Shown here: piece after piece, positions 4,500 to 29,654 of the stretch
Position numbering within the stretch: the stretch's first letter is position 1
How the letters are laid out: every line of letters begins with the position of its first letter
Assembly: GCA_965153455.1 (NCBI GenBank)
Contig: OZ234493.1
Coordinates: 19,458,213 to 19,522,212 of the forward strand
Direction: 5' to 3'
Length of the DNA stretch: 64,000 nt
Origin: Sphagnum compactum
Taxonomy: Eukaryota
Notes under the pieces: generated by a model
Database searches by the model: none
The model's input: the letters and a program-made list of their open reading frames with translations, nothing else
Told to the model about the DNA's origin: nothing
Position numbers and translations under genes: made by a program

Positions 4500-7400
4500 G
4501 TAATTCACTTGAATTTTGAACTAGGAAAACTATTCAAAATTCAGTATTTTTTGGAAATGCTATTGGATTTCTACAAATCCAAACACCTTCATTAAATCTT
4601 ATGCATCGAAAGTTTTTTAACAATACAAAGAGTGTGCCCAAATTCCATTATAATTTTTTATTTAAATGAATTTTCAATGAAAACATTGTTTTCAATAACT
4701 TTTTCACTATAAGTTGAAGCATTATGAAACCAACTTGATACACCTTTATTCATTGAAAACTTTCCAACAACACCAAGAGCATGACAAGATGCACCATTAT
4801 TTGGGAGATTTTAATGTGACAAATAAATAAAATAAACTACCTTCTTTCATAGATAAATAGTGAAGGTTTTCAAAGACCATAAATGAAGAAAAAACTTAAT
4901 AAAAATCACCATTCTAATATTTGATTTTTAGTTTGTAGTTTTTTTAAAAAATGATTAAAGATTTGTACTTCATATTTGGTTTATAGCCAAATTTGGCTAA
5001 ATCTTATTACGGATGATAGTTTTTTTTATTACAAACAAAAATTCCTAAAAAAGAACAATGACCATCACCTACATAATATATATTGACATCTTCACTTTTT
5101 TGGGTGAATCCTTTTATTATAGAAACTCCACATACACATCATACACCAAGTTTTAGATGAAATATAACCAATATATGCAGTGCTGGGCCATTTGGGCCAA
5201 TAAATTAGGTTTGATTTGGTAAGTGATCACATGATTCGATAGTTGAAATGGGTGTGTTTAGTGTTCCATCTACGAGTGTTAAAAAATTATCGTTAATTTG
5301 TTGAAGCATACTCACATGTGACATTGAAGAGCTTGTCATGATTTATTTTGTTTATGCCAATTGGAATGAATGTTTCACCTATTGATGAATGTGGTTAAAA
5401 TTCATTAAACATTACCCTACCATTTATTTTTTTGCCATGAATTGCTGTGCTTTGTTTTGGCAAGATGTTGGTCAAGTCTTGTAGAACCTTGGAGACAAAT
5501 GGGGAAACATCTTTGATGCCAAATTTTCTATTGTATTTTAGTGATGTTTCTTATTTTCCTTACCAATACAATGATAAAAAATGGAATGAATTTTCCTCAA
5601 TATAGGACATAATATTGTTATTCTAGGATCCACACTCTTGATGTAAGATTGAAAAATGAAATATAAAACTTAATTAAGCTCAATATGAAAAATTGGGTTT
5701 CATAAAACAAAAGTGGAGTTATAACCCAAGGAGCCAATTTCTAACACAAGATTGCATGTCTTAATAAAGAATTGAACATCCTAAATCATGGATCCAAATT
5801 TGTAAGAACTATTGAATAGTAAATGTTCCTACAAAAATCAAATAGTCATATTTTCAATTGAAAGGATTTAATTCGTTCCCTTGCAAAATTCCTTATATTT
5901 TGGAAAATTATAAGGTATTGTACTAAGACTTATTAAGGATTCTAAATTCTTGAAACCACACCTTGGTTCCTAAAAAGGTTAGTGGTTTGACACCTCTTGT
6001 GACAAAAATTACGAAGGTGCACTAATTGATCTTGACCATGTGTTTGTAAGAAATTCATTGAGAATGATATTGAAAGGAAAACTATGACTTTATGAACTAG
6101 ACTTATTGATGTGCATCATGATTAAGGACTAAAAGAGGATAATGGAAAATTGATTCTTGAAAACCATAATCTTGAAACAAAACACACAAATGAATGGAAA
6201 TAAATAACATAAACATGTAGACAACAAAATGTATTCAAAAGTATGTTTCACATGTTTGAAAATGAAATGTTGGGTGTTTCCATTGGGAGGGATTGTACCA
6301 TATTGGCTTCTATTTTCATGCCCACCTTTCCTTGAACATGCTTGGAATCTAATTTTAAACCCCAAGTTGCACACCAATTTGTAGTAAAGGTGGCATCACA
6401 AAAAGGAACAACAGAGCAAGACAAAGTTGTGTGTATTCTTTTATACATCAAGGGTGATAGGTATGTTCAAAAGAGGTTGTCAATAAATTATTGCAACTAA
6501 ATCACAATCCACAAAGATGACATGTGGGGTAGTTACAACATAGGGTGGTTCATTTTTTCTTCACATTTTATTGTCTACATATTGCATTTTATTCAAGTGC
6601 CATAAACATATGGTGAAATCATCAATGCAACAAAAACATTTACAAATTAAAAATGCCAATTTGAATAAGAACATGGACATAATGATGAAATTCAAAAACT
6701 ATCTACCAAACATATAGTCATGAACTTTGATTAAATTATTATAATTGTAGTAATTAATTTTGATTACTGTAAAAATATGAATAATTAATGTGAATATTTT
6801 GTATTTCTGATAAATGTTAAGTATAAATAAGTAATTTAAAAGTTATAAATACAATTTTTTTGAAAATTAAATTCATTACTGTAATTATAGTATAATTATT
6901 ACAAAAATTAGAACCCAATTTAATTATAATTTATGACATATGAATAGCTTAAATATTATATAACTATTTATGATAATAATATTAAATAAATAAATAATCT
7001 AAATAAAATGGTTTTATAATAAATAATTTGATTTAAATAATTTTACTATATAATTTTTATAATTTTTTTTTATTAATATGCAGAAATATGAAAAATATTG
7101 TAAAATTAATGTAGTAATAATAATTATTCACTTTCAATCAAATATTATAGGTTTTACATACAATAATTTATTATAATTGAACTATTTTAATTAAAATAAA
7201 TAAATAAATAAATAATTCACATTATAGTAAAATTACCATAAGAATTGTAAATTTTAACTGAAATTATAAATTATAAATATTATTATTAAGTGAAATTACA
7301 TATTATATAAATTTTAAATAAATTTTTAACATTGTAAAAATAATAATAATTAGGGTAAATTTTTTATGTTGGAAGAATAATTATTTACTGAAATTAATTA

Positions 7401-8319
7401 ATTATAAACAATAGACATATTAATTTGAGAGTAATGATGATAATTACATTAATTATTGGAATTACGTTATGATTAGTGTAAAAACTTGAAATATGGATTT
7501 TAATTATAAAATTTAAGTTTTAAATTATTTGATTATCTATTTAAAAAATTGGTAACTAATTTAATTACAATAATTCTACTATAATTATTGTACTTGTTTT
7601 TTATACACCCATGGATGTTTGATGTATTGTCACCTTTACATATACCCTAATATGAGGCTAATATACAATAATATGTTTTCAACCATGCCTAATTAATCCA
7701 AGAGAATAATACATATATATGCCATTATGAATGTGGAGTACATAATGTATACATAAGGCTTAGTATACATAATTGTTAGTCACCATAACATAAAATACAC
7801 GACTTACCCTATACAAAATTAGTAACATACATAAGTTAATGTATAAAGAAGTATAAGATAACATTTTTTGGTCACTTTTGCAACTAATGGGCCATATAAA
7901 GGTCTTCTAAAATGAAAATAATGTGAAAAATAATCACATTGGAAGAATGAAAAACCTGTAAATTGTTGCAACATAGTCATAAATGTGACCAAAAAATGTG
8001 ATGTGATATTCAGTCGCAAATGTAACCAGTGTTACTTGTCAACAACAATTAGTCGCATGTAATCACAAATCATTTGATTACATTTTAGCCTTTCTCTACG
8101 CGTGACAATATTTTTAATGATAAAAAGGTCCTTTTTTTTCTTGGGCATCAAGCTATCCTTGTCCATATATATTTTCTCATGCATTGAAGTGTAGGAAAAA
8201 CTAGTTTTATTATATTTGTTCTAAATGCCAAATTTCTTTTAACATGGAGTTGGGTGAAAGGTCACATCATGATGGGAATAATGCTTTCTTGGAAGTTGAA
8301 TCATTTTTGCCACCATCTA
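4500..8319. repeat. Left outer arm of a large inverted duplication (partner 25825-29615)
   Basis: Continuous reverse-complement match over about 3.8 kb. In one sample, 6261-6322 versus 27798-27859 differ at about 7 of 62 nt. The paired ORFs 6129-6377(-) and 27640-27870(+) translate similarly. Confidence 0.95.
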
Positions 8320-10461
8320 AGTAAAGAGAAATCAAACTTCAACATGTAACTTGGGAAAGCCCAAGAAAAAACTGTGCAAAGAAAGCTCATGATAATTTCA
8401 TGAAGAAGCACCACATTGCTATGCCATCCAGAGCTTGAAGGAGGATTTTCAGCGGGGACCAAAGGTGTCTCAATCTCTGCACAGGGATGCACAACATCTC
8501 TCTTTCTTTTTGGCGGCCCTTGTGAAAGATCAACTCCTTTTCGCTTGAGGCCATCTGAATTTCCCATATTTTGCACTACTGAAATTCATTTTGCTCACTG
8601 GTCTCATAAATATTTTTCTCTTAACCTTTTGTTCTCATAAAACCTGCTACAAATCCTTTGCCATCCCTATAACATACACAGGGTATGATGGGTGTCCCAC
8701 ACATCACAGATTCCCACAAGCTAAGCTGATCTTTCCACTAGATCTCCCCCACAAAACACCAACCCCTTTCCTCTTCACGATCTCCCTGGAATTCTCACAC
8801 TCTTCTCTCACTCCTTTTCGACTTTTCTTGCAGATGTTTCTTTTTCTTCATTTTCTCGGTGCCCAGAAAATTCAAGAAGGGTTTTGTCATGACTCTTCAG
8901 ACTCTAGTAGACGCGCTTTACCGATTTCTTGGCCACTGAACAATTCATTACTGTCTTTTGTGGAACACATGTCTCTATTTTCTATTTTCTACTCATAATT
9001 GAGGATGGAGTATGCAACGTCACCTTGAGACTTGTGAAACACGCTTTACTTTTTCCCTCTGGCCTCCTCCATTATTATCATCATGACTTTTGTTCACATC
9101 CACTCATCGACCTCTCTTTTACCAAAAGACTATAGCCGAAAAAAAGCTAAGTCATAAATTTTAAAAGTGCTAAAATCAAATTCTTTTTAAGATTCTCAAT
9201 AGCCGAAATTCAACCAAATTCAAAGAAAAATCGTCAAATTTCCTTACATGCCTTTCAGTAGGTAGCCAAAATAAGAGAAATATGTTTAAAATTTTCTAAT
9301 GCCATATTTAGCTCATAGCCAAATCTGGCTAAATCTTCCTACCGATGATAGCCACTTGGGCTATGTCTCAAAACCGACCAAAAAATTATTCATCCACACG
9401 TTTTCTGCTGTTGGCTGATTTCACCCAGTGCATTATTGAAGCGCTCTGCCAGAGCTCATGTTGCAGGCAATGCATAATTAATTGGGCCTTGGGCGAACCG
9501 GCCAGGATGAATTGACCCCCACAGTGGGATCACTGTAAAAACCCCCAAAACCCATTTAATTGGCCGTATTAGGCCCCAAGATTTATAGATTTGGACTTGG
9601 GGACCTGATTTAGTCTAGGGAAATGATATTTATAAATATTGACGAGCATTTAAATGAGCTTTGTGGTTTTTACCATGATCCCAATGTGGGGGTCAATTTG
9701 CCTTGTTTGGGTGAACCTGGACTACACTAGAACCACCGTGAAAATCCGAAAGTTTTTGGGGGCACCTTCAAAACATTATAGATACATGGAGCATCCTTAG
9801 AACATCATCACCCGACACCTGCAAACACCCCTTTTCATTAAATCTTCCAGCGGGATAGCCTAACTCATGCTCCTCTCCAGTATTTATGTCGATTTGCCGT
9901 GGTCATTTTAACCCCTTTAAATGCCACTCTGGATGTGGACAGTGACTAATACTGGTCCAGATGTAAAGACATAAATGGTTTTTGAGTGTTTAAAGGGATT
10001 TTTATGACGTTTGTGGGTGGCGATTGTGATCATTAAAAACTATTCTATTTTAGCATAAAGCAGTTTTTTGCAGTTTTGGGGGTGGAGATGATCTTAGACA
10101 AAATCAGGGTCTCTAAATCGACAAAGACAGCCTCTAAGAGGCCTCACTCAAGAAGGTGAGTGTACCAGTGCAGGTGCTGGTTCGCCCTGGCCAGTGGCTA
10201 TGATTGGAGGAGCCTGGGGGGAGAAGGAAAAATTACATGGACAGTCATAGCAAATAAATCCAGAGTAGAAAAACAAAAGAAATTCTGTACAAAGGAATGA
10301 TTTTTCTTGGTGAATCTTGGCACTATGGCTACAAAGGAAATTTGAAGAAATTGGGAAAATTCGTTATAATAGTGTGAGTTCGAAAAAAAAATGGTGATAA
10401 AATGGAAATAATTGACAAAGTTTACAACCTACTAAATTGAAAAAATTAGAAAAAGAAGACT
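8320..10461. repeat. Left inner arm of the inverted duplication (partner 14913-16935)
   Basis: aacttcaacatgtaacttggg at 8335 is the reverse complement of the sequence ending near 16920. ORF pairs 8301-8576/16694-16915 and 8591-8998/15931-16820 match. Confidence 0.95.
9503..9705. mobile_element. Foldback/MITE-like insertion found only in the left inner arm
   Basis: About 50-bp inverted ends aattgacccccacagtgggatca... / ...tgatcccaatgtgggggtcaatt; absent at the matching site near 15580. Confidence 0.75.
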
Positions 10462-10636
10462 GTTACAGAGGTATATATGTGTGCACTCTAAATAAAGTAT
10501 GGAAAAACACGTGAAACTACTGGTGTTTTACTGCAAGACCCTTTTGACTCCTTATGGTGAGCCTGTTCCCCATAATAACTCCAAGACGCATCAAAGAAAT
10601 GTTAAATTTGAACTCTTCAACCCTCAGTTGGTCTAA

Positions 10637-10982
10637 GGCCTGCTTTACACTAGGAGTCAGGGCTGAAAAATCTTGCGGCCAAGTTTGAGCATTTTTGGCT
10701 TGTTGTTTGGCTGCAAGTTACTACTAAATGGTAGAACATTCTCCACAAGGCTTGCAAATTGGCTTCCCAAATTTGATGGTATCCTTTTCTTCAGCCTTGG
10801 GGCCAGTACAAGGCCATCAAGTTCAGTGTTTATTAGTAACTTGGGGCAGATTGCAAAGATTTTTTTTCTATTTCAGCCTTGACTCCTAGTGTAAGCACTT
10901 GGGGCTGATTTCAACTTTTGCAGCAATAGGAATGCTTGATTTGAGTTGAAGATCAGCCTTGACTCCTAGTGTAAAGTGGGCC
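10637..10982. mobile_element. Tourist-like (PIF/Harbinger) MITE; second copy at 14043-14365
   Basis: TIRs ggcctgctttacactaggagtcagggctga / tcagccttgactcctagtgtaaagtgggcc, flanked by TAA on both sides. Confidence 0.85.
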
Positions 10983-11786
10983 TAAGAGCAGCTGCACAGG
11001 TACTGGGTATATGGGCCTGAACATTGAATTCTGGCTCAGCACAGTGGCTTTGGGCTTTGAGATTTTCCCTGAGAATACCAAGGCAGACAAAAGGCTCAGC
11101 CAAGGACAATACCGCCTGTTGGTTGTTAGATAGACTGTGAGACAGGTGGTTGGTCCAAGTGGGTTGCTAATAGCTATTATTGGTTGCTGATCATTTACAG
11201 TGTAAGTTTTAGTGTGGGCTCGATAAAAAAATTAAAAAGAAACTAATCCTGGTTTTGGGAAATATTGTATTCCATTGCCATATACTAAGAGCACCTATGG
11301 AGCTGCTCTAAGGATGATTTTAGCTACAACAGAAGGTGTCTTTGCATTTCAAGTGATTTCAGTACATTGAATGAAGCCACTAATTTAAATAAATTGAGAC
11401 TAGTTGAAGAATAATGAATTTACTGATTTAATGGGGGGGGGAACTAGTGAACTGCACGCACATTTTGTAAGATTTAGAAGCAAACACAATGTGTTTTTGT
11501 AGCTTGGTACTAGTATAGGTGCTGATTTGGTCAAGCTGTAATTATACCAGGCATAAGCACTATGAGTGGTCCCATGGCCTTGGGATGTGTGGCCACAGCA
11601 TGGGAGGGTATGCCCTGTAAATAGTGAAACAGTGGGTTCCAGTACCATCTTTTCCTGACTTTACAGATAACTTTAATATCACAAGTTAGATTGGGGTAAT
11701 GCCAACCAAGTGGTGCGTTCTCCCTGAAATAGGCCTGCCCTGGCTTTGGCCAGTGTGGGTTCTTTGGGGGTAAGACCTTGCCATAT

Positions 11787-12675
11787 CTTAATGCCATTTT
11801 TTACTAAAAAAACATGTATTTATAAAATCAAGATTCAAAGTTAAAACATTTGGTTCTGGGCTTTTAAAAAAATCATAGGAAATCAAAGAAAGTTTATAAG
11901 ATTAAAATAGTATGGTGACAATCTCGTTCTTTTGTGAAAAGAAATTTGACTTATTTGATTTTCATATAAATCGATTCATAATTGAAAATGTTCCATTGTA
12001 ATATTTTGACCCATGTTTTGTAATTGTTCATGTATGTACAAGATTTCATCTTCTCCCCGCTGGACTAAAGATTTATGTTGTAAATTTTGTAATTCAAACT
12101 TTGGGTTTAAATAATCTCCGCTCCACATTCGACAAATAGTACTTACTTTCAAACCACCCAAAAAAAAAAATTCAAAAACATCTTTTGATGTTGTTTATCC
12201 AAGTACTCATAAAAAAATTTCAATTTAATCCAAAACTCTTCATTATCATGACCCCTAATGAGACTTTGCTCACTTTTCAATTTGTTCAATGCACCCTTCT
12301 AGATTTCCAATTTTTTAGTATTGAAGAAAAAATAACCCAATACTTTAAGACTTAGAGGGAACCCCCACAAGCATTTATAATCTTTGTACATATATTTTTG
12401 AAATTTTTTGTTGGAACATGATTTGCATTATCGAATGCATGGAACATAAATAATTCCCTTGCTTGCTCTTCCTCCAAAGATTTCATGATCATTTTTTCAT
12501 TCTCACTTACATCAAATTTCAGAATTTGTCAATTTTGACAATCCATAAGTACTTTGCTTTTAGAAGTTGCATTCTTGACAACCTTTTCAATGAGAAGTTG
12601 CAAGGATGTAAGGTTCTCCGACTTATCAACATCATCCATCACCACTTACACTTTCTCCGATATCACTGATTGCCT
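11787..12675 (-). pseudogene. Antisense NB-ARC fragment, an unspliced copy homologous to about 20055-20948
   Basis: The reverse complement gives kinase-2, RNBS-C and GLPL-like segments plus GGLKVSTICRMWSGDYLNPK...LYIHEQL, followed by the adjoining intron sequence. It contains frameshifts and stops. Confidence 0.92.
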
Positions 12676-13128
12676 AATCTTGCAGTGGTGTAGCGTAATT
12701 CATGCTCCTCTCTAATATTTATGTTGATTTGCAGTGGTCATTTTAACCCCTTTAAAAATTAGCATGGATTTGGACAGTGATTATTACTGGTCCAGATGTA
12801 GACATAAATGGTCTTTGAGTGTTTAAAGGGGCTTTTATGACATTTGTGGGTGGGGACAGTGATCCTTTAAAACTATTCTATTTTAACATAAAGCATTTTT
12901 TTCCAGTTTTTGGGGTGGAGATGATCTTAGACAAAATTAGGGTCTCTAAATCGACAAAGACAGCGTCTAAGAGCCCTCTCTCAAGAAGTGAGTGTACCAG
13001 TGTAGGTGCTGGTTCGCCCCAGACAGTGGCTATGATTGGAGCAGCCTGGGGGGAGAAGGAAAAATTACATGGAAGGTCATAGCAAGTAAATCCAGAGTAG
13101 AAAAATAAAATAAAAAATTTGTAGAGAG

Positions 13129-13300
13129 GAGTGATTTTTCTTGGTGAATTTTCGCACTGTGGCTACAAAGAAATTTAAAGAAATTGGGAAAATTCGTTTT
13201 AATAGTGTGAATTTGAGAAAAAAATGCACATAAAATAGAAAAGTCAACAAAGTTTACAAACCACAAAATTGAGAAAAGAAGGAAAGGAAAAAAAGCACTG
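13129..13300. mobile_element. hAT-type MITE (CAGTG...CACTG family); homologous copies at about 10295-10461 and 14913-15085
   Basis: Ends gagtgattttt...aaaagcactg with an 8-bp TSD gtagagag / gtacagag. Confidence 0.75.
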
Positions 13301-13361
13301 GTACAGAGGTATATATATGTGCACCCTAAATAAAATATGGAAAAACATGTTGTGAAACTAA

Positions 13362-13688
13362 GGGAAACTTTAGATGAGGGTCCAAGGTCCAGGAACCAAT
13401 GAATTCAAGCAATCTTATTGGTCGAAAGCTTTAAATTGGTCCCAAGGCCTTTAGACGAGGATCCAAGACCAAAAAGTGACAAATTGAGGCTAATGTGGCA
13501 CCTGTTTTGGAGGGAAAATCAATTGGTTGGGACCAAAAGACAGTGCTAAAAGGAGAGCTCCTGATTTGGAGAACCAAGAATCAGGCTAGGGACCCAGGTA
13601 CACTCCACCTCAAGAATTCAATTTGCTTCACATGAGTCCAAATTGGTTCCTAGGAAATCGGACCCGGGACCCTCGCCTAAAGTGGGCC
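13362..13688. mobile_element. Tourist-like MITE inserted after the duplication
   Basis: TIRs gggaaactttagatgagggtcc / ggaccctcgcctaaagtgggcc with a TAA TSD (13359-61, 13689-91). The empty site gtgaaactactggtg is at about 10511. Confidence 0.88.
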
Positions 13689-14042
13689 TAATGATGTTTT
13701 ACTGCAAGACCGTTTTGACTCCTTATGTGGAGAACCACAGTCAGCTCGATTGACATCCGGTGCAAAGTGCAAACATGTTGGATCCGTGACCTGAGGCCTT
13801 AGCCTAGTGAAAGCCAGTACCTTTTTGCTCACTTTTGGTTTTGTGACTTGCTTTGTGTTATGGTGCCCGCAACCAAGTCTGTTGTTTGTGAAGGAATTGG
13901 GGAAACCTGTATTAATGACCAGGCTGAACCTGCACCTACATTAATGCATTCACCTTCTTGAATGAGGCCTTTCCCCCATTATCACTACAAGACGCATAAA
14001 AGAAATGTTAAATTTGAACTCAGAGACCCTGATTTAGTCTGA

Positions 14043-14365
14043 GGCCCGCTTTACACTAGGAGTTAGGGCTGAAAAAACTTGGGGCAACTCTGAGTATTTT
14101 TTTATTTTTGTCTGGCCCCAAGTTATTAATAAATGCTACAACATTGGCCACAAGGGTTGAAAATTGGCTTCCCAAATTTGATGGTATCCTTTTTTTTAGC
14201 CTTGGGGCCAACACAAGTTATTAGTGACTTGGGGCAGATTGAAAAGATTTTTTCTTTTTTGGCCTTGACTCCTAGTGTAATTTAGCACTTGAGGCTGATT
14301 TCAACTTTTGCACCGTGCGTGATTTGAGTTGAACATCGCCCTCGACTCCTATTGTAAAGTGGGCC
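14043..14365. mobile_element. Tourist-like MITE, duplicated copy of 10637-10982
   Basis: Same TIRs; flanks tga and taa. Confidence 0.8.
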
Positions 14366-14912
14366 TAAGAGCAGGTCCACAAGTGCTGGCTATATGGCTG
14401 TAGACAGTAAATTTTGGCTCAGCACAATGGCTTTGGCTGGACATTTTCCCTGAGAATACCAAGGCAGGCAAAAGCCTCAGCAAAGGACAATACCTGCTAT
14501 TGATTGTTCAATAGACTGTTAGACAGGTGGTTGGTCGAAGTAGGTTGCTAATAGCTATTATTGGTTACCGATCATTTGCATTGTCAGTTTTAGTGCGGGG
14601 TTGGGAAAAGAAAAAGAAACTAATCCTGGTTTTGGGATATATCGGGTTCCATTGCAATATACTCAGAGCACCTGTGGAGCTGCTCTAAAGGATGATTTTA
14701 GCTACAACAAAAGCTGTTTTGTCAAGTGATTTCACTGAATTTTGAATGAATTCATTATTTTTTAATTAATTAATGAATGGGCAATAATGAATTGCACCCA
14801 CATCTTTTATAATTAGAAACAAACACAAAGCTTTTGTAACTTGATACCAGTATAGATGCTGGTTTGGTCAAGGCATAGTATTTGTCCCTGGTATACCAGA
14901 TACAAATATTAT

Positions 14913-16935
14913 CAGTATTTTTTTCTTTTCTCTTTTCTTTTTCTCAATTTTGTGGTTTGTAACTTTGTCAAAAATTTCCATTTATTGAGCATTATTTTCT
15001 CGAATTGACACTATTAAAACGAATTTCCCCAATTTCTTCAAAAAAACGTTTAGCCATAGCGCGAAAATTCACCCAAAAAAATCACTTTTCTACACAGAAT
15101 TTCTTTTGTTTTTCGACTCCAGATTTATTTGTTATGACTGTCCATGTAATTTTTCCTTCTCCCCCCAGGCTGCTCCGATCATAGCCACTGGCCAGGGCGA
15201 ACCAGCACCTACACTGGTACACTCACCGTCTTGAGGAAGGCATCTTAGAGGCTGTCTTTATCGATTCAGAGACTCTGATTTTGTCTAAGAGTATCTCCAT
15301 CACAAGACTGTAAACAACTCCTTTATGTTATACTAGAACAGTGTTTAATCATCACTGTCCCCACCCACAACCGTCATAAAATTCCCTTTAAACACTCAAA
15401 GACCATTTATGTCTTTACATCTGGACCACTAATAGTCACTGCATGTCCAAATACACGTAGAAATAAGCTTTTAAAGGGGTTAAAATAACCACTGCAAAAT
15501 TGAAATCAATACCGGAGCGGAGGAGGGGTTACGCTATGCTGCTGCAAGATTTAATGACAAGGGGTGTTTGCAGGTGTAGGGTGGCCGGTTCACCCAAGGC
15601 CCAATTAATCATCCATTGCCTGCAACATGAGCTCTGGCAGAACGCTTCAATAATGCAGTGGGTGAAATCAGCCAACAGCAGGAAACGTGTGGAGCAATAT
15701 TTTTTGGGTGAGTTTTGAGATATAGCCCAAGTGGCTATCATCGGTAGGAAGATTTAGTCAGATTTGGCTATGAGCTAAATATCGCATTAGAAAATCTTCA
15801 ATATCTTTCTCTAATTTTTGGCTACCCACTTGAAAACCATGTATGGAAATCTGACGATTTTTCTTTGGATTTGGTTGAATTTTGGCTATTGAAAATCTCA
15901 AAAAGCATTTGATTTTAGCACTTTCTAAATTTATGACTTAGCTTTTTTTCGACAATAGTTTATTGGTGAAAGAAAGGTCGGTGTGTGGATGTGAACAAAA
16001 GTCATGATGATAATAATGGAGGAGGCCAGAGGGAAAACGTAGAAAGCGCGTTTGACAAGTCTCAAGCTGACATGAGTAGGAAATAGAGACATGTGTTCCA
16101 GAAAAGAAAGTAATGAATTGTTCAGTGGCCAAGAAATCGGTAAAGCGCGTATGCTAGAATCTGAAGAGTCACGGCAAAATCCTTCTAGAAGTTTCTGGGC
16201 GAGGAGAAAATGAAGAAGAAGAAACATTTGTGAGAAAAGTCGCAAAAGGAGTAAGAAAAGAGAGTGCGAATTCCAGGGAGATCCTGAAGAGGAAAGGGGT
16301 TGGTGTTCTTTGGAGAGATCTAGTGGAAAGTTCAGCTTGCGAGAATCTGTGATGTGAGGGACACCCATCATACCCTGTGTATGCTATTGGGATGGCAGAG
16401 GATTTCTAGCAGGTTTTATGAGAGCTTCTTCTTCTGTGAGAAAGGTCGAAAAAGGAATAAGAAGAAAAGAGTGTGAGAATTCCAGGGAGTTCGTGAAGAG
16501 GAAAGCAGTTGATGTTTTCTGGCGAGATCTAGTGGAAAGATCAGCTTAGCTTGTGGGAATCTGTGATGTGAGGGACACCCATCATACCCTGTGTATGCTA
16601 TTGGGATGGCAAAGGATTTGTAGCAGGTTTTATGAGAGCAAAAGGTTAAGAGAAAAATATTTATGAGAGCAGTGAGCAAAAGGAATTTCAGTTGTGCGAA
16701 ATATGGTAAAGCAAAAAGGAGTTGACCTTTCACAAGGGTCTTCAAAAAGAAAGAGAGATGTTGTGTGGACCCCTGCCGCGATTGAGACACCTTTGGTCCC
16801 GGCTGAAAATGCTCCTTCAAGCTCTGGATGGCACAGCAATGTGGTGCTTCTTCTTGACCTTATGATGAGCTTTCTTTGCACAGTTTTTCTTGGGTTTTCC
16901 CAAGTTACATGTTGAAGTTTGTTTTTTCTTTATTT
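14913..16935. repeat. Right inner arm, immediately upstream of the NLR, with an internal ~200-bp tandem duplication (about 16228-16425 and 16436-16639)
   Basis: Reverse-complement match to 8320-10461. The block ...gtgatgtgagggacacccatcataccctgtgtatgctattggg... occurs twice. Confidence 0.93.
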
Positions 16936-17865: not shown

Positions 17866-19581
17866 AAATATCTAGTGCATGATTTAAATCCCAGCTACAA
17901 TTCCAATAATCCAACCTTCACCATCATTTTTTTTCATGGGATTGTTTTTGGCACGAATGATGCATGGAAGGAAACATGGACAACACGTCCCACCAATGAT
18001 AGAGAAAAGTGCATATGTTGGCCAGAAAAGTGGCTACCTGAAGACTTGAACAACAATGTTCGAATTTTATCATTGTCCTATGATTCTCACATTGTGGCAA
18101 GTGTTCACGATGATGTGACTGAAATTGGCAAAAACCTCATTCAAAGTTTGATTGCAAATTCAAGGTGTGAAAATCTCCTCTACTTATTTGAAAAACATAT
18201 ATATATATATATTTTTTTTATTTTTTTTTATTTTTTTTCAGCTATATTTCCAACGTAACACATAGAAGATGAGTTGTACATTAACAAAAGAATGTACACA
18301 CTTACACATTTGTGCATAATAATTGCTTTACCAAAACATGGTTGTCACATTTTCTAGGTAGATTAATGGAATCAATAAATGAAAAATGACACATGACAAG
18401 CAAATCAATTATGAACTTATGGCTTAGGTCATGTGTCAATTGGAAAATTGCTCCAAGTATAATAGGATGAATTTGTGCATGTTAATACAATGTTGATAAT
18501 GGAATTTTGGTGCATTGTTAAATATTTTGTAGGTATCAATCCCTTTGGGATGGACCAGTGGCATTAGTTGCTTATAGTTTTGGAGGTCTTGTACTCAAAA
18601 GCTTGGTGGTTGAAGCTCACAAACGTGTATATCAACGGCTAACAAATGGTTTGGATGATGAAATACAAAAATGTTGTAAAACATTTTTGAACAATGTCAA
18701 AGGTGTAATATTTTACGGTGTACCACATTCTGGTGCTAGCAATTTATCAAAATATTTCAAATGGCAATGTCAACAAATCAACACGTTCAACAAACATTTT
18801 GCCCCACTTGGTTTTTCAAGAAATTAAAAACCTTTCAACAAACAAATGCAATCCCTTTCAAAGGAGTTTAAAGATGCTGTTCATGAAGACTTCAACATTT
18901 ATGAATTTGGCGAAGGATTACCAATCAACAAGAATTGGGTAAAATTTTCATTGTATCACATTGAAAGTTATTTTCATTAGTTAAACATTTTTGTACTGTC
19001 AAAACTTGTGTGAAATCATGTACTCAATACTTCTGAATATATCAATGTGGTGAATGGGTCATGTGTTTTATGAACTTTGTTTCATGAATTACTATTGATG
19101 GAAATGAAATGTGATTGATTTCAAACATTAGGAAATAGGTTTAAAATTTCCCTTCATCAAATCAATTCCACATAAATATTTTAAAGGAAAATCATAACAT
19201 CATTAAAACATGTAAGATTCCTAATTAAAAACCAATAACTTTGTGATGTATTTATATAAGTTGTTTGCCAAAGGGTTGAAGGAAATTACTTGTATACAAT
19301 ATTTCATTATTATTCAAACATCAATAGTTATTAAGTTATAGTTTCCACTACCATTTGGTTTATAAGTTAAAGGATAAGTGAACAAACAAATCAATAAGTT
19401 TCATTAACTTAATTTTTTGCACATGCAGGGAATTTTAGTGCCATATGTCTCAGCTACTCAGTTGTCAAACAACAACCATTACAAAATTGAGGATGCTAAT
19501 CACTTCACAATTTGTAAGCCACCAAACAAGGATCATGCAAGCTACTTTTTATTATTACAATGTTTGAAAATATGTATGAAG
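17866..19581 (+). CDS. N-terminal alpha/beta-hydrolase (SERAC1/PGAP1/SesB-like) domain exons of the NLR
   Basis: Spliced translation reads ...IIFFHGIV...CWPEKWLPEDL...VRILSLSYDS...GPVALVAYSFGGLVLKSLV...VIFYGVPHSG...GFSRN*KPFNKQM...FGEGLP...DANHFTICKP. The frame continues cleanly past the TAA to the GT donor at 18939. Confidence 0.85.
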
Positions 19582-22500
19582 GTAAAAACATCAAATTTAA
19601 GTCTTTTGATTTCATATATGTTCATGTAATTTGAAACACACTCGGTCACAGCACATTTGATGTGTTTTGCATATGCAATGTCATATATAATGATTATCAA
19701 ATAAGAAATATAGCATATAAATGACCTATATTTTGTGAATTTTGACAGAAAAATATATTGCTTCCACGTTTGCCATGTCATGAGGTGGCGTTGATTGACA
19801 AAGCACGAGACATAAACATCTTGTTACAAAAGCAATCTATTGTTGGTTTGGTTGGAATGGGTGGGATTGGAAAAACCACTTTGAGTCAAAAATTCTATCA
19901 TTTGTTCCACAACCAATATGACAAATCTAGTTTTTTGGAGGATGTGAAATCAAAGGACAATATCAATGATGTCATTAAACAACTCCTACATGATTTGTGT
20001 GGCAAAAGGTTATGCAAGGATGAAAATGTGAATCAAGAACACCTTGACGAAATCAAGCAATGTATGATATCGAAAAAAGTGTTAGTGGTGGTGGATGATG
20101 TTGGTAAGACGGAGAACCTTACATCCTTGCAACTTCTTGTTGAAAAGGGTGCCAAGAATGCAACTTCTAAAAGCAAAGTACTTGTGAATTGTCGAAATTG
20201 GCAAATTCTAAAATCTCATGTAAGTGAGGATGGAAAAGTGGTCATGAAATCTTTGGAGGAAGAGCAAGCAAGGGAACTATTTATGTTCCATGCATTCGGT
20301 AATGCAAATCATGTTCCAACAAAAGATTTCAACGATATATGTATGAAGATTATAAAAGCTTGTGTGGGGCTCCCTTTAAGTCTTAAAGTATTGGGGTCTT
20401 TTTTATGCAATAATAAAGAATTGGAAATTTGGAAAGATGCATTGAGCACATTGAAAAGTGGGCAAAGTTTGACAGGGGGCAATGATAATGAAGAGCTTTG
20501 GAATGTATTGAGAATTTCTTATGACCATTTGGATAAAAGACATAAAAACATGTTTTTGGATATTGCTTGTTTTTTTGGTGGTTTGAAAATAAGTACAATT
20601 TATCGAGCGTGGAGTGGAGATTATTTACACCCAAAACTTGGATTACAAAATTTACAAGAAAGATCTTTAATCGAAGGGGTAGAATGTGGAATCTTGTTCA
20701 TACATGACCAATTACGAGACATGGGTCGAAATATTGCAATGGAATTACCAATTATGAATCGATTTGTATGGAAATCAAATGAATCAAATTATTTTTTACA
20801 AAAGGATGAGGTTGTCATTCTATTTTTTCAATCCTATAATTTTATTTCAATTTCTTATGATTTTTTTAATGTCCAAAACCAAATGTTTTAGCTTTGAATT
20901 TTGATTTTATAAATACATGTTTTTCTAATAAATTTTGGCATTAGGATGAAATGTTATTTTGCATTGATAACCCTTTTGTTTTCATTTCATGTGATAGGTG
21001 GTGGAACATTTAGAGGGCATTTCATTGAAAAAATGTGTCGATTTGCCTTTGTTGTCCAAAATCGACTCAAAGGGATTTCCCAACCTTAGGTTGGTTGACC
21101 TAACAGAAGCTTCACCAACTATTGTGGAAAATTTTATCAAACAACGAAATTTGAGTAATGTTAAATGGTTATGCCTCAAAAAATGCATGATGGAAAAATT
21201 GCCAAGTAATTTGTTTTCTTGTTCACAACTTCGAATGCTTGATTTGGCACAATGCAAAGAATTGAAAGAACTACCTTCATCTATTGGCCAAGTGAATGCA
21301 CTCCAAGAGCTTGATTTGTCAGGGTGTTCCAACTTGAAAGAATTACCTTCATCTATTGGTCAACTGAATGCACTCCAAAAGCTTGATTTGCATATGTGTT
21401 CCAATTTAGAAGAACTACCTTCATCTATTGGCCAATTGAATGCACTCCAAGAACTTGATTTGTCAAAGTGTTCCAACTTGGAAGGACTACCTCCATCTAT
21501 TGGCCAATTGAATGCACTCCAAAAACTTTATTTGTTAGGGTGTTCCAACTTGAAAGAACTACCTCCATCTATTGGCCAATTGAATGCACTCCAAGAGCTT
21601 TGTTTGTTAGAGTGTTACAACCTGAAAAATCTACCTTCATCTATTGGCCAATTAAATGCACTCCAAAAGCTTGATTTGCAAAGGTGTTCCAAGTTGAAAG
21701 AATTACCTTCATCTATTGGTCAATTGAAGGCACTCCAAGAGCTTGATTTGTTAGGGTGTTCCAACTTGAAAAAACTACCTCCATCTATTGGCCAATTGAA
21801 TGCACTCCAAAAGCTTGTTTTGTCACAGTGTTCCAACTTGGAAGAACTACCTCCATCTATTGCCCAATTGCATGGACTCCAAGTGCTTGTTTTGTCAGCG
21901 TGTTCTAACTTGGAAGGACTACCTCCATCTATTGGCCAATTGAATGCACTCCAAAAGTTTGATTTAGGAGTGTGTTCCAAGTTGGAAAAACTACCTTCAT
22001 TTATTGGCCAATTGAATGCACTCCAAGAGCTTAATTTGTCAAGCTGTCCCAAGTTGAAAGAACTGCATTCATCTATCGGCCAATTGAATGCACTCCAAAA
22101 GCTTAGTTTACGATGGTCTTATAACTTGAAAGAACTACCTTCAGTTATTGGCCAATTGAATGCACTCCAAAAGCTTGATTTGCATATGTGTTCCGAGTTG
22201 AAAGAATTACCTTCATCTATTGGCCAATTGAATGCACTCCAAGAGCTTGATTTGGGAGTGTGTTACAAGTTGAAAAAATTACCTTCATCTATTGGTCAAT
22301 TGAATGCACTCCAAAAGCTTGATTTGCATATGTGTTCCAACTTAGAAGAACTACCTCCATCTATTGGCCAATTGAATACACTCCTAAAGCTTTATTTGTG
22401 GGATTGTTCCAACTTGAAAGAATTACCTCCATCTATTGGCCAATTGAATGCACTCCAAAAGTTTAATTTGCAAATGTGTTCCAAGTTGGAAAAATTACCT

Positions 22501-23826
22501 TCATCTATTGGCCAATTGAATGCACTCCAAGAGTTTTATTTGTCAGGGTGTTCCAACTTGAAAGAACTACTTCCATCTATTGGCCGATTGAATGCACTCC
22601 AAAAGCTTGATTTGCAAAAATGTTCCGAGTTGAAAGAATTACCTTCATCTATTGGCCAATTGAATGCACTCCAAGAGCTTGATTTGGGAGTGTGTTACAA
22701 CTTGAAAGAACTACCTCCATCTATTGGCCAATTGAATGCACTCCAAAAGCTTGATTTGTCAGGGTGTTCCAACTTGAAAGAACTACCTCCATCTATTGGC
22801 CAATTGAATGCACTCCAAAAGCTTGATTTGTCAGGGTGTTCCAACTTGAAAGAACTACCTCCATCTATTGTGCAATTGAATGCACTCCAAAAGTTTAATT
22901 TGCGAATGTGTTCCAAGTTGGAAAAATTACCTTCATCTATTGGCCAATTGAATGCACTCCAAGAGTTTTATTTGTCAGGGTGTTCCAACTTGAAAGAATT
23001 ACCTCCATCTATTGGCCGATTGAATGCACTCCAAAAGCTTGATTTGCAAAAATGTTCCGAGTTGAAAGATTTACCTTCATCTATTGGCCAATTGAATGCA
23101 CTCCAAGAGCTTTATTTGTGGGATTGTTCCAACTTGAAAGAACTACCTCCATCTATTGGCCAATTGAATGCACTCCAAAAGTTTAATTTGCGAATGTGTT
23201 CCAAGTTGGAAAAACTACCTTCATGTATTGGCCAATTGAATGCACTCCAAGAGCTTGATTTGTTAGGATGTTCCAACTTAAAAGAACTACCTCCATATAT
23301 TGGCCAATTGAATGCACTCCAAAAGTTTAATTTACGAATGTGTTCCAAGTTGGCAAAACTACCTTCATCTATTGGTCAATTGAATGCACTCCAAGAGCTT
23401 GATTTGTTAGGGTGTTCCAACTTGAAAGAATTACCTCCATCTATTGGCCAATTGAATGCACTCCAAAAGCTTGATTTGCAAAGGTGTTCCGAGTTGAAAG
23501 AACTACCTTCATCTATTGGCCAATTGAATGCACTCCAAAAGCTTTATTTGTGGGGTTGTTCCAACTTGGAAGCATTACCTCCATCTATTGGCCAATTGAA
23601 TGCACTCCATGAACTTGATTTGTGGGGTTGTTCCAACTTGAAAGGACTACCTTCATGTATTGGCCAATTGAATGCACTTCGAAAGCTTGATTTGTTGGGC
23701 TGGTCCAATTTGGAAGGACCACCTTCATCTTTTGGCCAATTGCATGCATTTCAAAAGTTTGATTTTTGCAAATGTTCCAACTTGAAAGAACTACCTTTAT
23801 GTATTGGGCAATTGAATGCTCTCTGA
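17866..23826 (+). CDS. Hydrolase-NB-ARC-LRR (HNL-type) NLR immune receptor. Exons 17866-18164, 18533-18938, 19429-19581, 19749-20810, 20998-23826. Start exon not located. One in-frame TAA at 18825-18827 makes this allele a possible pseudogene.
   Basis: GT-AG introns keep the reading frame across all five exons. Hydrolase motifs FFHG, AYSFGG, YGVPHSG and DANHFTICKP; NB-ARC P-loop GMGGIGKTT, kinase-2 LVVVDDV, GLPL, FLDIACFF and IHD; then a 24-aa LRR array. Confidence 0.9.
19749..20810 (+). CDS. NB-ARC domain exon
   Basis: ORF 19758-20891 carries P-loop, kinase-2, RNBS-B (SKVLVNCRN), RNBS-C, GLPL, RNBS-D and an MHD variant (IHD). Acceptor tttgacAG ends at 19748; donor GT at 20811. Confidence 0.95.
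21229..23820 (+). repeat. Coding tandem array of 36 x 72-bp LRR units, consensus LQ(K/E)LxLxxCSxLKELPsSIGQLNA
   Basis: Units counted in the 942-aa ORF; 21229 + 36 x 72 = 23821, the codon just before the TGA. The nucleotide core tctattggccaattgaatgcactcc recurs in most units. Confidence 0.97.
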
Positions 23827-25110
23827 AAGCTTGATTTGTGAGGGTGTTGCAACTTGAAAGAACTACCTTCATTTATTGTCCAATTCAATGCATTCCAAGA
23901 GCTTGATCTACGAAGGTGTTCTGAATTGAAAGAATTAGCTTCATCTATTGGTCAATTGAATGCACTCCAAAAGCTTTATTTGTTAGGGTGTTCCCACTTG
24001 AAAAAACTGTTTTCATCTATTGACTAATTGAATGCACTCGAAAAACTTGATTTGCGAAGGTGTTCTAAGTTGAAAGAACTACCTTCATCTATTGGCCAAT
24101 TGAATGCGCTCTGAAAGTTTGATTTGTGTGAGTGTTCCAACTTGAAAGAACTACCTTCATCTATTGGTCAATTGAATGCACTCCAAGAGCTTGTTTTGTG
24201 CGAGTGTTCCAACTTGAAAGAACTACCTTCATGTATTGGCCAATTGAATGGACTTCGAAAGCTTGGTTTGTCAAAATGTCCCAACATAACTACCCTCATC
24301 TATTGGCCTATTGAATGCACTCAAAAAGCTTGATTTGTCATGGTGTTCCAACTTGAAAGAATTATTTTCATCTATTGGCCAATTGAATGCACTCCAAAAG
24401 TTTTATTTGTTAGGGTGTTCCAACTTGAAAGAACTACAATCATCTATTGGCCGATTGAATGCACTTTAAAAGCTTGATTTGAATGGGTGTTCCAGTTGAA
24501 AAAATTATCGTCATCTATTGGTCAATTGAATGCACTCTAAGAATTTGATTTGTTAGGGTGTTGCAACTTGAAAGAACTACCTTCATGTATTGGCCAATTG
24601 AATGCACACCGAAAACTTGATTTCAATAAGTTGAAAAAATTATCGTCATCTATTGGTTAATTGAATGCATTCCAAGAATTTGATTTGTCAAGGTGTTGCA
24701 ACTTGATTGAAACTACCTTCATTTATTGACCAATTGAATGCACTCCAAATTTTTATTTATAAAACTTCTACAACTTGAAAGCATCATCCAAAAAATACAT
24801 TCATCTATGGGCGAATTGAATGCACTCAAAGTTTTTCATTTGTCATGGTGTTCCAATTTGAAATAACTAGTTTCAACTATTGGTCATTGAGTGCACTTGA
24901 GAATTTTGATTTGTGTGAATGCTTCAACTTGCAAGAATTATTTGCATGTACATTGGCCAATTAAATGCATTCCAAAAGTTTTAGTTGTGGGAGCTTAATT
25001 TATACGAGCTTATAGGAATTACTTACGTTTATTAGCCAATTTAATGCATTCAAGGAACTTAATTTGTTAAGGTATTTCAATTTGAGATAATTACTTTCAT
25101 CCATTGCCGA
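23821..25110 (+). pseudogene. About 17-18 degenerate LRR units continuing downstream of the stop codon
   Basis: The same 72-bp unit continues with stops (ctctga, gactaa, ctctaa) and small indels, and diverges more toward 25.1 kb. Confidence 0.9.
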
Positions 25111-25824
25111 CTGTATCGTTTGTAAAAAACCCTTATTTTCAACCAAACCACTTTCAACTTGATGTCATCTTCGACTACGTTTCAATTGTATTGTTTTGAA
25201 CATTTAAAAAAATTATTCACAATTTTCAAGTAAATTGTGAGCCACCTACTCTTTTGGTGGACAAATGAAGGCATATCCCAAATATTTTGCAGCTCACAGA
25301 ATGTTCTTAGCACGCCCATGGTCTACAATTGAATTCTAGTCAAAATGTTGACTTGGAAATTTACATAGTTTATAGTCAAGCCTTTATGGGTGATGTGTCC
25401 CATGTTCAACTACTTTGGTTGATTACAAAACATAGTGATGGATGATAGATCACACATTGATGGATGACATTGAGATTAACACTAATGTCTTCGTTGCAAG
25501 TGCACATCAAGACCATTTCTCGACTATGATTACAAGTTGAAGGCAAAAAATGAATGTTGAATAGTCTTACATATTATGTCCACAATTCAATTGCAAATGT
25601 TATTTAGTAAACATGACAACAACCATTGTGCCATGTTCTATAAACAGTGGTATATGCATGGTTCTGGTTTTAAGAAACAAATATTTATTGAGGTTGTCAA
25701 AGCCAACAAAATCATAAGGATGAAAATATGTTCTTTTTCTTTGAAAGACCCCCACAACTAGATTTTGAAAACTATCAAGTTATTTGATGATTTGTCAAAA
25801 ACATTCAAATCCTAGGTTATGCGA

Positions 25825-28800
25825 TAGATGGTGGGCAAAAATGATTTAGCTTCCAAGAAAACATTATTCACGTTTAAGATGTGACCTTTCACCCACCTCC
25901 CTATTAAAAGACATTTGGTATCGAGAAAAATTTAACATAATAAAACTAGTTTTCTTTATAGTTCAATGCATGAGAAAATACATATGGACAAGGAGACCTT
26001 GATGCCCAAAAAAAGAAATGATCTTTTGATCAATAGAAGCATTGGCACTAATGGAAAAAGGCTAAAACGTAACCAAATGATTTATGATTACATGCAATTA
26101 ATTGTCATTTACAACTAACATTAGTTACATTTGTGACTAAAAATCACATCACACATTTTTTGGTCACATTTATGACTATGTTGCAACTATTTCTAGGTTT
26201 TCATTCTTCCAATGAGACGATTTTCCATTTTATTTTTCTCTTAGAAGGCCTTCATATGGCCCATTAGTTGCAAAAGTGACCAAAAAATGATAATTAATAC
26301 TTATTTACACATTAAGTTATGTATGTGACTAATTTTGTATAGGGTAAGTCATGTGCTTTATGTCATGGTAACTAACAATTATGTATAGTAAGCCTTATGT
26401 ATACATCATGTACTCCACATTCATAATGGTATATATATATATGTATAATTCTCGTGGATTAATTAAACATGGTTTGAAGAAACTATTATTGTATATTGAC
26501 CCCATATTAAAATATATGTAAAGATGACAATACATCAATCATCCATAGGTGTATAAAAATATATATACAATAATTATCATAGAATTATTGTGATTAAAGT
26601 AATTACCAAAAATGTATATAAATAATCAAATTATTTAGAACTTAAAATCTAAAATTAGAATCCATATTTAATCTTTTTACACTAATCATAATATAGTTCG
26701 ACTAATTAATGTAATTATCATCATTATTGTCAACTAATATATCTATTATTTATAATTACTTATTACAATAAATAATTATTATTTCAACATAAAAATTTGG
26801 AAATTTAATTCTTGAAATTTACAAATGCTAAAAATTAAATTTAAAAATATATAATATGTAATTGCACTTAGTAATCATATTGATAATTTATAATTTAAAT
26901 TAACATTTACAAATTTTATGGTAATTTTACTATAATGTGAATAATTAATGTACTTGTTGTAATTACAATAATTGAATTATAATAGATTATTGTTATGTAA
27001 GAACAATAATATTTTATTGAAATTGAATAGTTATTATTACAATAATAGTTTTTACATAAACTTTTATTACTTTTACACAATAATAAAAATTATAAAATTA
27101 TACTAAATTGATTTTAATCAAATTAAATATTTTAAAATAATTTTTTATTTATTTAGTAGTAGTATCATAAAAAGATTGTATAATATTTAAGCTATTTATA
27201 CAATAGAAATTATAATTAAATTCGGATCTATTTTTAAAATAATTATATTATAATTAAAATAATGAATGTAATTATTGTAAAATACTGTGTTTCTAATTTT
27301 AAATTACTTCTTTATGGTTAACAATTATTAGCACTACAAAATATTCACGTTTTTATAGTAATCATAATTAATTACTATGATTGTAATAATTTAATGAAAG
27401 TTCATGACTATATGTTTGTTGTATTTTTTTGAATTTCATCATTATGTGCATATTCTTATTCAAATTAACAATTTCAATTTGTAAATGTTTTTGTCACTTG
27501 ATGATTTCACCATATGTTTATGATGTTTGAATACAATACAATATGTATAAAATAAAATGTCATGAAAAAATGAACCACCCTATATTGCAACTACCCCACA
27601 TGTCATTTTTGTGGATTGTGATTTAGTTGTAATAATTTATTGACAATCTTTTTTGAGCATACCTATCACTCTTGGCATATAGGAGAATACACACAACTTT
27701 GTCCCATTGTGATGTCATCTTTATTATTTTGTGTTGTCCCGTTGGTGTGCAATTTGGGGTTTAAAGTTAGATTCCAAAGATGTTCAAGGAAGGGTGGGCA
27801 TGAAAATGGAAGCACATATGGCACAATCACTCCCAATGGAAACACCCAACATTTTGTTTCAAGCATGTGAAACATACTTTTGAATACATTTTGTTGTTTG
27901 CATGTTTATGTTATGTTTATGTTTATGTTTCCATTCATTTGTGTGCTTTGTTTCAAGATCTATGGTATTCCAGAATCAAATTTCCATTGTTCTGTTTTAG
28001 TCTTTAATCATGATGCACATGAATTAGTCTAGTTCAATGAGTCTTAATTTCCTTTTAAATATCATCCTTAATGAATTTCTTACATCCACGTGGTTAAGAT
28101 CAATTAGTGCACCTTCATAATTTTTGTCACAAGTGTCAAACCACTAACTTTTTTAGGAACCAAGGTGTGGTTGCAAGAATTAATAATCTTCCATAAGTCT
28201 TAGTACAAGACCTTATAATTTTCCAAAATATAGGAAAATTTGGAAGGAAATGAATTAAATCTTTTTGAATTGGGAATATGAGTCCTTGATTCATAGGAAC
28301 ATTTACTACTTAATAGTTCTTAAAAAATTGGATCCATGATTTAGGATCCTCAATTCTTCATTAAGACATGCAATTTTATGTTAGGAACTGGATTCTTGGA
28401 TTACACCTCCACTTTTGTCTTATGAAATCCAATCTTGCATATTGAGCTTAATTAAGTTTTATATTCATTTCTCAATCCTACTTCAAGAGCGTGGATTTTA
28501 GACTAACAATAATTTGTCCTATATTAAGGAAAATTCATTCCATTTGTTATCGTTGTATTGGTAAGGAAAGTAAGAAACATCATTGGAAATACAATAGAAA
28601 GTTTTCGCATTAAAAATGTTTCACCATTTGTCTCCAATGTTCTACAAGACTTGACTAACATCTTGCCAAAACAAAGCACAACAATTCACAGTAGAAAAGA
28701 GAATGGTAGGGTAATGTTTCATGAACTTTTACCACATTCACTCCAATTGGCATAAACACAAGAAATCATGACAAGTTTTCCAATGTCGCATGTGAGTATG

Positions 28801-29615
28801 CTTCAACAAACTAGTGATATTTCTTGAACACTTGCACATGGAGCAATGAACACACCCATTTCGACTATTAAATCATGTGATCACTTACCAAATCAACCCA
28901 GTTTACTTGCCCAAATGCCCCAATAATGCATATATTGACTATATTTCATATAAAATTTGGTGTATAATGTGTATGTGGAGTTTCTATAATAAAAGGCTTC
29001 ACATTAAAAAGTGAAGGTGCTGATATGTACTATGTAGGTGATGGTCATTGTTCCTTTTTAAGAATTTTTGTTTATAATAAAAATAATTATCATCCCTAAA
29101 AAGATTTAGCTAAAATTAGTTGGCTAGAAACGAAATATGAAATACAAATCTTTAATCATCTTTATATATTTTTTACTACACACATAAAATCAAATATTAG
29201 AATGGTGATTTTTATTAAGTTTTTTCTTCGTTTAATGCTTTTGAAAACCTCCAATATTTATCTATGAAAGAAGGTAGTTTATTTGATTTGTTTGTCACAT
29301 TGAAATCTCCCAAACCATGGTGTGTCTTGTCATGCTCTTGGTGTCATTGGAAAGTTTTCAATGAATAAAGGTGTATCGAATTGGTTTCATAATGTTTCAA
29401 CTTATAGTGAAGAAATCATTGAAAACAATTTTTTCATGAAAATTCATTTGAATCAAACACATTATAATGGAATTCGGGCCACTTTTGGTATTCTTACAAA
29501 ACTTTTGATTCATAGGATTTAATGAAGGTGTTTGGATTTGCAAAAGTTTAATGATTTGTGAAAAATATTGAATTTTGAATAATTTTTTCTATTCAAAATT
29601 CAATTACATTACAAA
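25825..29615. repeat. Right outer arm of the inverted duplication (partner 4500-8319)
   Basis: tagatggtgggcaaaaatgatt at 25825 is the reverse complement of about 8299-8319; the match runs to about 29615 and includes the AT-rich core. Confidence 0.95.
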
Positions 29616-29654
29616 TACTTGTGACTAGTTTTGCAAGACTTTGAATTGTTAATC

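Follow-up and report, generated by a model that had tools for sequence, protein, structure and literature searches.

A stretch of 64,000 nucleotides of the peat moss Sphagnum compactum (GenBank assembly GCA_965153455.1, contig OZ234493.1, positions 19,458,213 to 19,522,212 of the forward strand; the whole stretch is called the window) carries a putative hydrolase-type NLR gene (nucleotide-binding domain with leucine-rich repeats) between flanks that recur in inverted orientation. Our analysis indicates that positions 3755-34835 probably represent a small, decaying birth-and-death NLR cluster, made up of three copies of a hydrolase-NLR unit that occurs many times in Sphagnum. Three paralogues are present in this region, two of them relics and one with a nonsense codon, as is typical of birth-and-death clusters. 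A previous reading of the sequence (the original prediction) described a whole NLR gene enclosed in an inverted duplication whose sister copy lacks the gene, either by clean deletion of one member of a head-to-head pair or by insertion of the NLR as a cassette into one copy; the third relic and the nonsense codon were missed there.

The forward copy is designated R and the two minus-strand copies L and M. X, B and Ua denote segments of the 5' region, and D denotes the 3' flank. Related loci are 80 moss-type metagenome contigs, retrieved by a scan with the NB-ARC open reading frame (ORF) of the gene; the flank map rests on these loci, each reaching 10 kb either side of NB-ARC. Anatomy and breakpoints of the three copies, read directly from the window, are as follows (MITE stands for miniature inverted-repeat transposable element).

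Copy L (3755-11784, minus strand)
3755..4496, minus: outer 3' flank (3755-3947, 3937-3996 and 4339-4485 against the reverse complement of 32061-31583)
4497..8319, minus: 3' flank D', AT-rich and non-coding, matching 25825-29615
8320..8411, minus: 92-nt stub of intron 1, ending at the joint 8319/8320
8412..8567, minus: coding exon 1, an intact 52-codon ORF from ATG
8568..11784, minus: 5' region (Ua' 8568-9504, MITE-bearing 9505-9808, X' 9809-10519, B 10561-11784)
Copy M (11785-14872, minus strand)
11785..12673, minus: NB-ARC pseudogene fragment, 83.9% identical to 20057-20947, inverted
12676..14872, minus: 5' region (X' 12676-13360, MITE-like insert 13361-13966, B 13967-14872)
Copy R (14918 to at least 34835, plus strand)
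14918..16702, plus: 5' region (X 14918-15583, then Ua)
16703..23826, plus: hydrolase-NB-ARC-LRR gene (from tblastn, Pfam and RNA joints)
23827..25106, plus: distal 72-nt LRR repeats, unreadable owing to several stops and frame changes
25107..34835, plus: 3' part of the unit (post-LRR 25107-25824, D 25825-29615, insertion 29616-31582, outer part 31583 to at least 34835)

Inverted arms

Arms were mapped by self-BLAST and repeat search; identities and Kimura two-parameter distances (K2P) were obtained from global alignments. By self-BLAST, 4497-8319 is the reverse complement of 29615-25825 (3872 columns, 83.2%, bit score 3927). On the other side of the joint, reverse-complement matches connect 8319-8834 with 16935-16433 (87.3%), 8633-9504 with 16423-15582 (86.5%) and 9809-10457 with 15583-14928 (83.7%). 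A repeat search of the window recovered the same arms, so that the arm coordinates and the 8319/8320 fusion given in the original prediction are confirmed. Chance is ruled out as the source of this likeness. In global alignment, L and R share 85.3% identity in the 3' flank (K2P 0.165) and 90.7% in the 5' flank (K2P 0.100), in line with the divergence of roughly 10-15% previously estimated by eye. The joint itself is clean, with a possible overlap of 1-2 nt. The arms run further out than was described: 3755-4485 pairs with the reverse complement of 32061-31583, and on the right arm this outer match is broken by a 1,967-nt insertion (29616-31582) private to R.

Long inverted arms had also been proposed to allow the interior to invert. 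An invertible segment is expected to have long, nearly identical arms. Since the arms are 85-91% identical and their longest identical run is 53 nt, inversion of the interior by way of them appears unlikely. Joints between opposite strands do occur in the read comparison, e.g. 8352/16756 and 10134/14002. This comparison consists of four runs of short Logan contigs aligned to the window at 88% likeness or more, where paralogues and other species pile up and read depths are not usable as copy numbers. The most plausible source of the joints is paralogue contigs whose parts were assigned to different copies.

The gene in copy R

Exons of the R gene are located at approximately 16703-16843, 17866-18164, 18533-18938, 19429-19580, 19748-20816 and 20998-23826. 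This gene model corrects the apparent one, as the first exon lies about 1 kb upstream. Using tblastn, the first 46-59 residues of 7 of the 10 annotated relatives fall at 16703-16861, where the ORF is open from ATG. RNA contigs join 16842 to 17865 (n=4) over a 1,022-nt GT..AG intron and 16844 to 17867 (n=3), and a further joint connects 19578 with 19747; such contigs may stem from paralogues, so these splices are those of the family and not of copy R itself. Because exon 1 lies at 16703-16843 and is spliced to 17865, the breakpoint 16935/16936 is 92 nt inside intron 1. The block 16936-25824 was said to hold the whole gene; exon 1, however, sits in the duplicated "upstream flank".

The NB-ARC ORF (19746-20891) scores 119.1 bits with PF00931 (cutoff 23.5 bits) and 47.9 bits with PF23282, a Roq1-type winged helix, and its P-loop is readable. 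The LRR exon, which is open throughout (20998-23826), scores 387.9 bits with PF23598. A serine-hydrolase-like elbow is found in the N-terminal exons. Exon 3 of R alone reaches 14.7 bits (E 0.022) with the DUF676 profile PF05057, which is under the cutoff of 20.3 bits; two relatives (P0004 and P0028) that are 68-90% identical to R over exons 2-3 pass it with 22.8 and 25.1 bits. Taken together, the domains suggest that R belongs to the bryophyte hydrolase-NLR (Hyd-NLR/HNL) class. The NB-ARC ORF matches thousands of NLR proteins. Most of the best 41 are from Sphagnum (75-89% identical), and S. fallax matches are spread over at least 10 chromosome-scale contigs. These matches point to peat-moss nuclear DNA and to a gene from a large dispersed family.

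R does not have an uninterrupted reading frame. Exon 3 contains an in-frame TAA at 18825-18827, a site that reads TTA in 48 of 51 related loci and TTT, CTA and T-A in one each; none of the 51 has a stop there. The LRR array as a whole (21228-25106) comprises about 49-54 regular 72-nt (24-residue) repeats that are 81% matching (Tandem Repeats Finder score 4229), counted as 48.6 copies, and is in frame over about its first two thirds. Array length varies among relatives, which suggests unequal exchange within the array. With this stop and the decayed distal array, the gene can no longer be regarded as intact.

Two relics opposite to R

Copy L runs in the order 3' flank, a gap of 8.9 kb relative to R, intron stub, exon 1, Ua, X and B. 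The missing block begins some 0.9 kb ahead of exon 2 and ends 0.7 kb beyond the LRR array. The stub retains the donor GT and is of the same length as 16844-16935 in R. By tblastn, 8 of the 10 annotated relatives place their first residues at 8567-8394 of the minus strand, and the exon 1 peptide is the N-terminus of 46 of 69 Sphagnum relatives. Since exon 1, the donor site and 92 nt of the intron are kept, L is a truncated gene with promoter and exon 1, not an empty site. RNA contigs lie over exon 1 of L as well, but at 8396 all eight differ from the window, and they are no evidence of L transcription.

In two related loci (L027 and L039) the gene is complete, and the flanks on both sides of it align right up to the position of the L joint. 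Because these nearest relatives hold a complete gene between the same flanks, the ancestral state of the L lineage would have been filled, and the most likely cause of its present emptiness is an 8.9-kb deletion. In the 3' flank, the nearest sampled relatives of L are L021 and L017 (K2P 0.09-0.10). On its 5' side, L045 is colinear with L up to 11784, with 95% identity over 11536-11784. L039, L027 and L080 are colinear with its outer part; the L unit is cut off at 3755, and relatives and R go on further. No match to window positions 1-3750 was found in any of the 80 loci.

Absence of the 8.9-kb block from the left side holds for copy L. Part of the block (20057-20947) nevertheless recurs inverted at 11785-12673, in the relic that we call M. 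What remains in this fragment is the C-terminal two thirds of NB-ARC, followed by the winged helix and by some 130 nt of the intron that comes next. When it is read in the R frame, its 277 codons include 5 stops and 6 indel codons; 179 of 277 residues are identical. M is a dead genomic copy and not a retrocopy, because its homology continues into the intron. The NB-ARC piece is fused directly to its own X, so that, compared with R, 15551-20057 (4.5 kb) is missing; the order is NB-ARC piece, gap, X, MITE and B. X and B of L are each repeated directly in M (9841-10519 at 12676-13360, and 10561-11535 at 13967-14872).

The 5' regions of both relics contain MITE-like inserts, recognized by terminal inverted repeats (TIRs). 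These are a 39-nt pair at 9510-9698 in L and 24-nt repeats at 13367-13683 in M. Depth peaks were observed in bin 13360-13883 in all four runs and in bin 10740-11263. Inserts and peaks show that transposon movement went on within the unit afterwards.

Decay of M and R is directly visible in their reading frames, and taking L into account, all three copies are to all appearances dead or disabled, unless the TAA is an assembly error.

A repeat unit of the whole family

The flanks are widely distributed in the family. Among loci whose sequence reaches 3.2 kb or more upstream of exon 2 (n=15), exon 1, Ua and X are each present in 14. Where 2.5 kb or more follow the LRR array (n=24), the post-LRR stretch is present in 16 and D in 15. 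The "flanks" are thus part of a many-copy unit that travels with the gene family and are nothing special to this locus. The unit consists of a 5' region of about 2-3 kb (B, X and Ua), the gene, and a 3' region that is AT-rich and mostly at least 6-9 kb long. A search for other HNL genes between the same flanks was proposed as a check in the original prediction; both flanks do lie, colinear, beside many other paralogues in the 80 loci, and the view of L as an empty counterpart of filled sites is not upheld.

Colinearity with R reaches 33.3-34.8 kb in L028, L039 and L050 (in L050 up to 34835). R itself starts within X (14918) and lacks some 65 nt at its outer end compared with the other copies; its Ua holds a 214-nt tandem duplication at 16229-16639. 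The insertion 29616-31582 is carried by none of the 80 loci, and six loci bridge the site. A 161-codon ORF on its minus strand (31090-31575) gave no Pfam match, and clear terminal repeats are lacking in the insertion. Degenerate exons similar to DHBP synthase occupy 33731-35367 of the minus strand, in tail-to-tail arrangement with the NLR gene (PF00926, E 3.4e-7 and 0.009). These recur downstream of at least three other paralogues (L032, L034 and L050). The repeat unit thus carries along a riboflavin-pathway gene, as a fragment or as a diverged copy.

Several other irregularities were noted among the units. L032 and L034 jump from 25933, 108 nt inside the 3' flank, to 33653, with about 7.7 kb of R missing. 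Their breakpoint is close to the L breakpoint 25825, and the DNA just past the gene may be prone to repeated breakage; alternatively, D may have been inserted long ago. In L074, a complete gene is preceded in tandem by a second, partial 5' region (Ua and X), some 3.1-4.7 kb ahead of its exon 1, so promoter-region relics beside a full copy are not unique to the window. A dispersed repeat of 130-250 nt (71-90% alike), probably a small non-autonomous transposon, is found in NLR 5' regions at 9132-9385 and 15700-15947 and also at 43085-43336, 56602-56741, 60829-60962 and 63329-63432.

The unit has no sharp upstream end; its upstream limits are ragged and vary from locus to locus. At a joint common to L006 and L040, a kinase gene is cut in its catalytic loop and fused to segment B. 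This is the trace that would be left by a tandem segmental duplication ending inside a neighbouring kinase gene. A complete kinase gene is present in the window (39745-41673, minus strand). Over its kinase part, L006 shows 94-96% identity to the window kinase gene region (37.7-41.3 kb), far above the likeness among the NLR parts. The kinase pieces lie at 1-2479 in L006 and at about 4110-4150 in L040, against 37681-41266 in the window. Considering the ragged ends, the kinase-gene joint and the lack of any transposase-type Pfam family in the 30 window ORFs and the 19 scanned of 35 flank ORFs of related loci, a transposon as vehicle of the whole unit is unlikely.

Distances between copies and relatives

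To estimate how L and R are related, K2P distances were compared with the family median. They are 0.096 versus 0.101 in the 5' region, 0.170 versus 0.151 in X, and 0.154 versus 0.124 and 0.177 versus 0.147 in the 3' flank. Accordingly, R ranks 8th of 21 neighbours of L in the 5' region, 8th of 8 and 11th of 13 in the 3' flank, and 11th of 11 in X. Loci nearest to L are L021, L017, L080, L039 and L027, and those nearest to R are L001, L002, L006, L009 and L026. L and R are at or beyond the median family distance in every segment and, judged by these values, do not appear to be sisters. For the NB-ARC DNA of M, R ranks 39th of 81 by distance.

Origin of the cluster

We propose that segmentally amplified units came to lie head to head, with 5' ends of L and M facing R. 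The three copies would have been brought together long ago by segmental duplication plus inversion, or by inverted duplication. L, once complete, would then have lost an 8.9-kb block reaching from intron 1 to a point 0.7 kb beyond the LRR array; the nearly homology-free joint, with its 1-2 nt of overlap, suggests end joining. At least two events would have removed the greater part of M, and R would have gained the nonsense codon.

Several observations weigh against this scheme. Deletion after duplication and incomplete copying at birth are inseparable in the data. Loci nearest to L and R could be paralogues or orthologues from other Sphagnum species, so that an old local inverted duplication is conceivable. 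The protein tree that sets M apart from R is a quick one, with weak support for the place of M. D is missing in 9 of 24 loci, hence the unit is not uniform, and the TAA of R rests on one assembly.

The alternative that survives best is that L, and M as well, were born incomplete, template switches of the FoSTeS/MMBIR type (fork stalling and template switching/microhomology-mediated break-induced replication) having passed from the 3' flank over the gene body to intron 1 and then taken in other pieces; the left copy would then never have been a whole gene. A number of joints where overlap is minimal or lacking (8319/8320, 12673/12676 and 11784/11785) would fit, as would the short, colinear pieces in one orientation and their broadly similar divergences (K2P 0.10-0.20). 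Template switching is not required, however, since two tandem units with internal deletions yield the same piece order. Moreover, each of L and M comes with an X and a B of its own, and MITE content is not the same in the two, as would be expected of separate units; their nearest relatives differ from those of R, which argues against R as template. We consider such an origin unlikely.

Still less probable is a locus-private inverted duplication of R into head-to-head sisters, one of which later lost its gene. The opposite copy without gene body and the clean joint, both correctly recognized in the original prediction, agree with it, and so does the presence of both L flanks in the order in which they match R. 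Sister status itself is contradicted by the distances between L and R, at or above the family median, by the ranks of R among the neighbours of L and by the presence of three copies instead of a pair.

An assembly artefact, such as a collapse or mis-join of paralogous units, is highly improbable. There are dozens of family copies 80-92% alike, and none of the Logan contigs listed crosses 8319/8320, which leaves the joint without independent assembly support here; an exact 24-nt word across it had no match in metagenome contigs, a result uninformative on absence. On the other side, the arms differ by 9-17%, too much for collapse; the original prediction, which named misassembly as a possible refutation, likewise judged it unlikely. 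The joints fall within otherwise colinear homology. Pieces from run X1 (possibly the source sample, and thus not independent) match 11315-11588, 11823-12103 and 12166-12483 with 0 differences.

Insertion of the NLR as a mobile cassette between the flanks of one copy is next to inconceivable: the missing block looks gene-sized when exon 1 is overlooked, but its left boundary is inside intron 1 with exon 1 and promoter left behind in L, neither TIRs nor target-site duplications were seen at its ends (16936 and 25824), no transposase-type Pfam family was detected in the ORFs scanned in and around it, and every relative that has both flanks keeps an undivided gene, exon 1 included.

As to the decaying cluster that we favour, its inverted relics might have a further effect. 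Given read-through transcripts, they could feed hairpin small RNAs that damp the whole hydrolase-NLR family, a very remote prospect in our estimation. Candidate hairpins could form between 8.3-9.5 and 15.6-16.9 kb (about 91% alike) and between 11785-12673 and 20057-20947 (about 85% alike). One proposed origin of microRNA genes is the inverted duplication of target genes. If true, the relics would represent an early stage of this route.

Comparison with known systems

The hydrolase-NBS-LRR class was described for bryophytes by Xue et al. 2012 (PMC3352924), and Sphagnum hydrolase-NLRs are mentioned by Chia et al. 2024 (PMC11218826). Compared with the class, R differs by the in-frame stop in its hydrolase exon and by an exon 3 that on its own stays below the DUF676 cutoff.

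Resemblance to RPS4-RRS1 type pairs (PMC7747988) is limited to divergent orientation with 5' regions facing each other over a short spacer. According to a review cited in that paper, all known head-to-head NLR pairs consist of a typical NLR and a partner bearing an integrated domain. Two complete divergent NLR genes are not present here, since L retains exon 1 only and M a 0.9-kb NB-ARC piece with 5 stops; the partners are fragments of the same family, and there is no second complete gene. No integrated domain was found in Pfam scans of ORFs in 1-34 kb, and tblastn with 10 relatives gave only HNL pieces.

Filled and empty sites of transposons or cassettes likewise have one copy with a block between flanks and another with the flanks joined. 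Here, in contrast, the block boundary cuts the gene in intron 1, and terminal repeats and target duplications were not seen. The long "flanks" of these genes, being common to the family, will mislead synteny and filled/empty-site reasoning.

Birth-and-death evolution of NLR clusters was reportedly put forward by Michelmore and Meyers in 1998. Like such clusters, the region contains several paralogues in about 30 kb, truncated and pseudogenised members, and signs of segmental duplication, deletions and transposon insertions. RPP4/RPP5 is a named example of an NLR cluster in the introduction of PMC7747988. Our case differs in that it belongs to the bryophyte hydrolase-NLR class, that all three copies look dead or disabled, and that the unit has unusually long conserved non-coding flanks. 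Its structure is otherwise ordinary, a new example of known NLR cluster decay, and its relics, once dated, could calibrate the speed at which dead NLR copies erode in a bryophyte genome. Peat-moss hydrolase-NLR genes would thus turn over like the resistance-gene clusters of flowering plants, by duplication, inversion, deletion and point decay.

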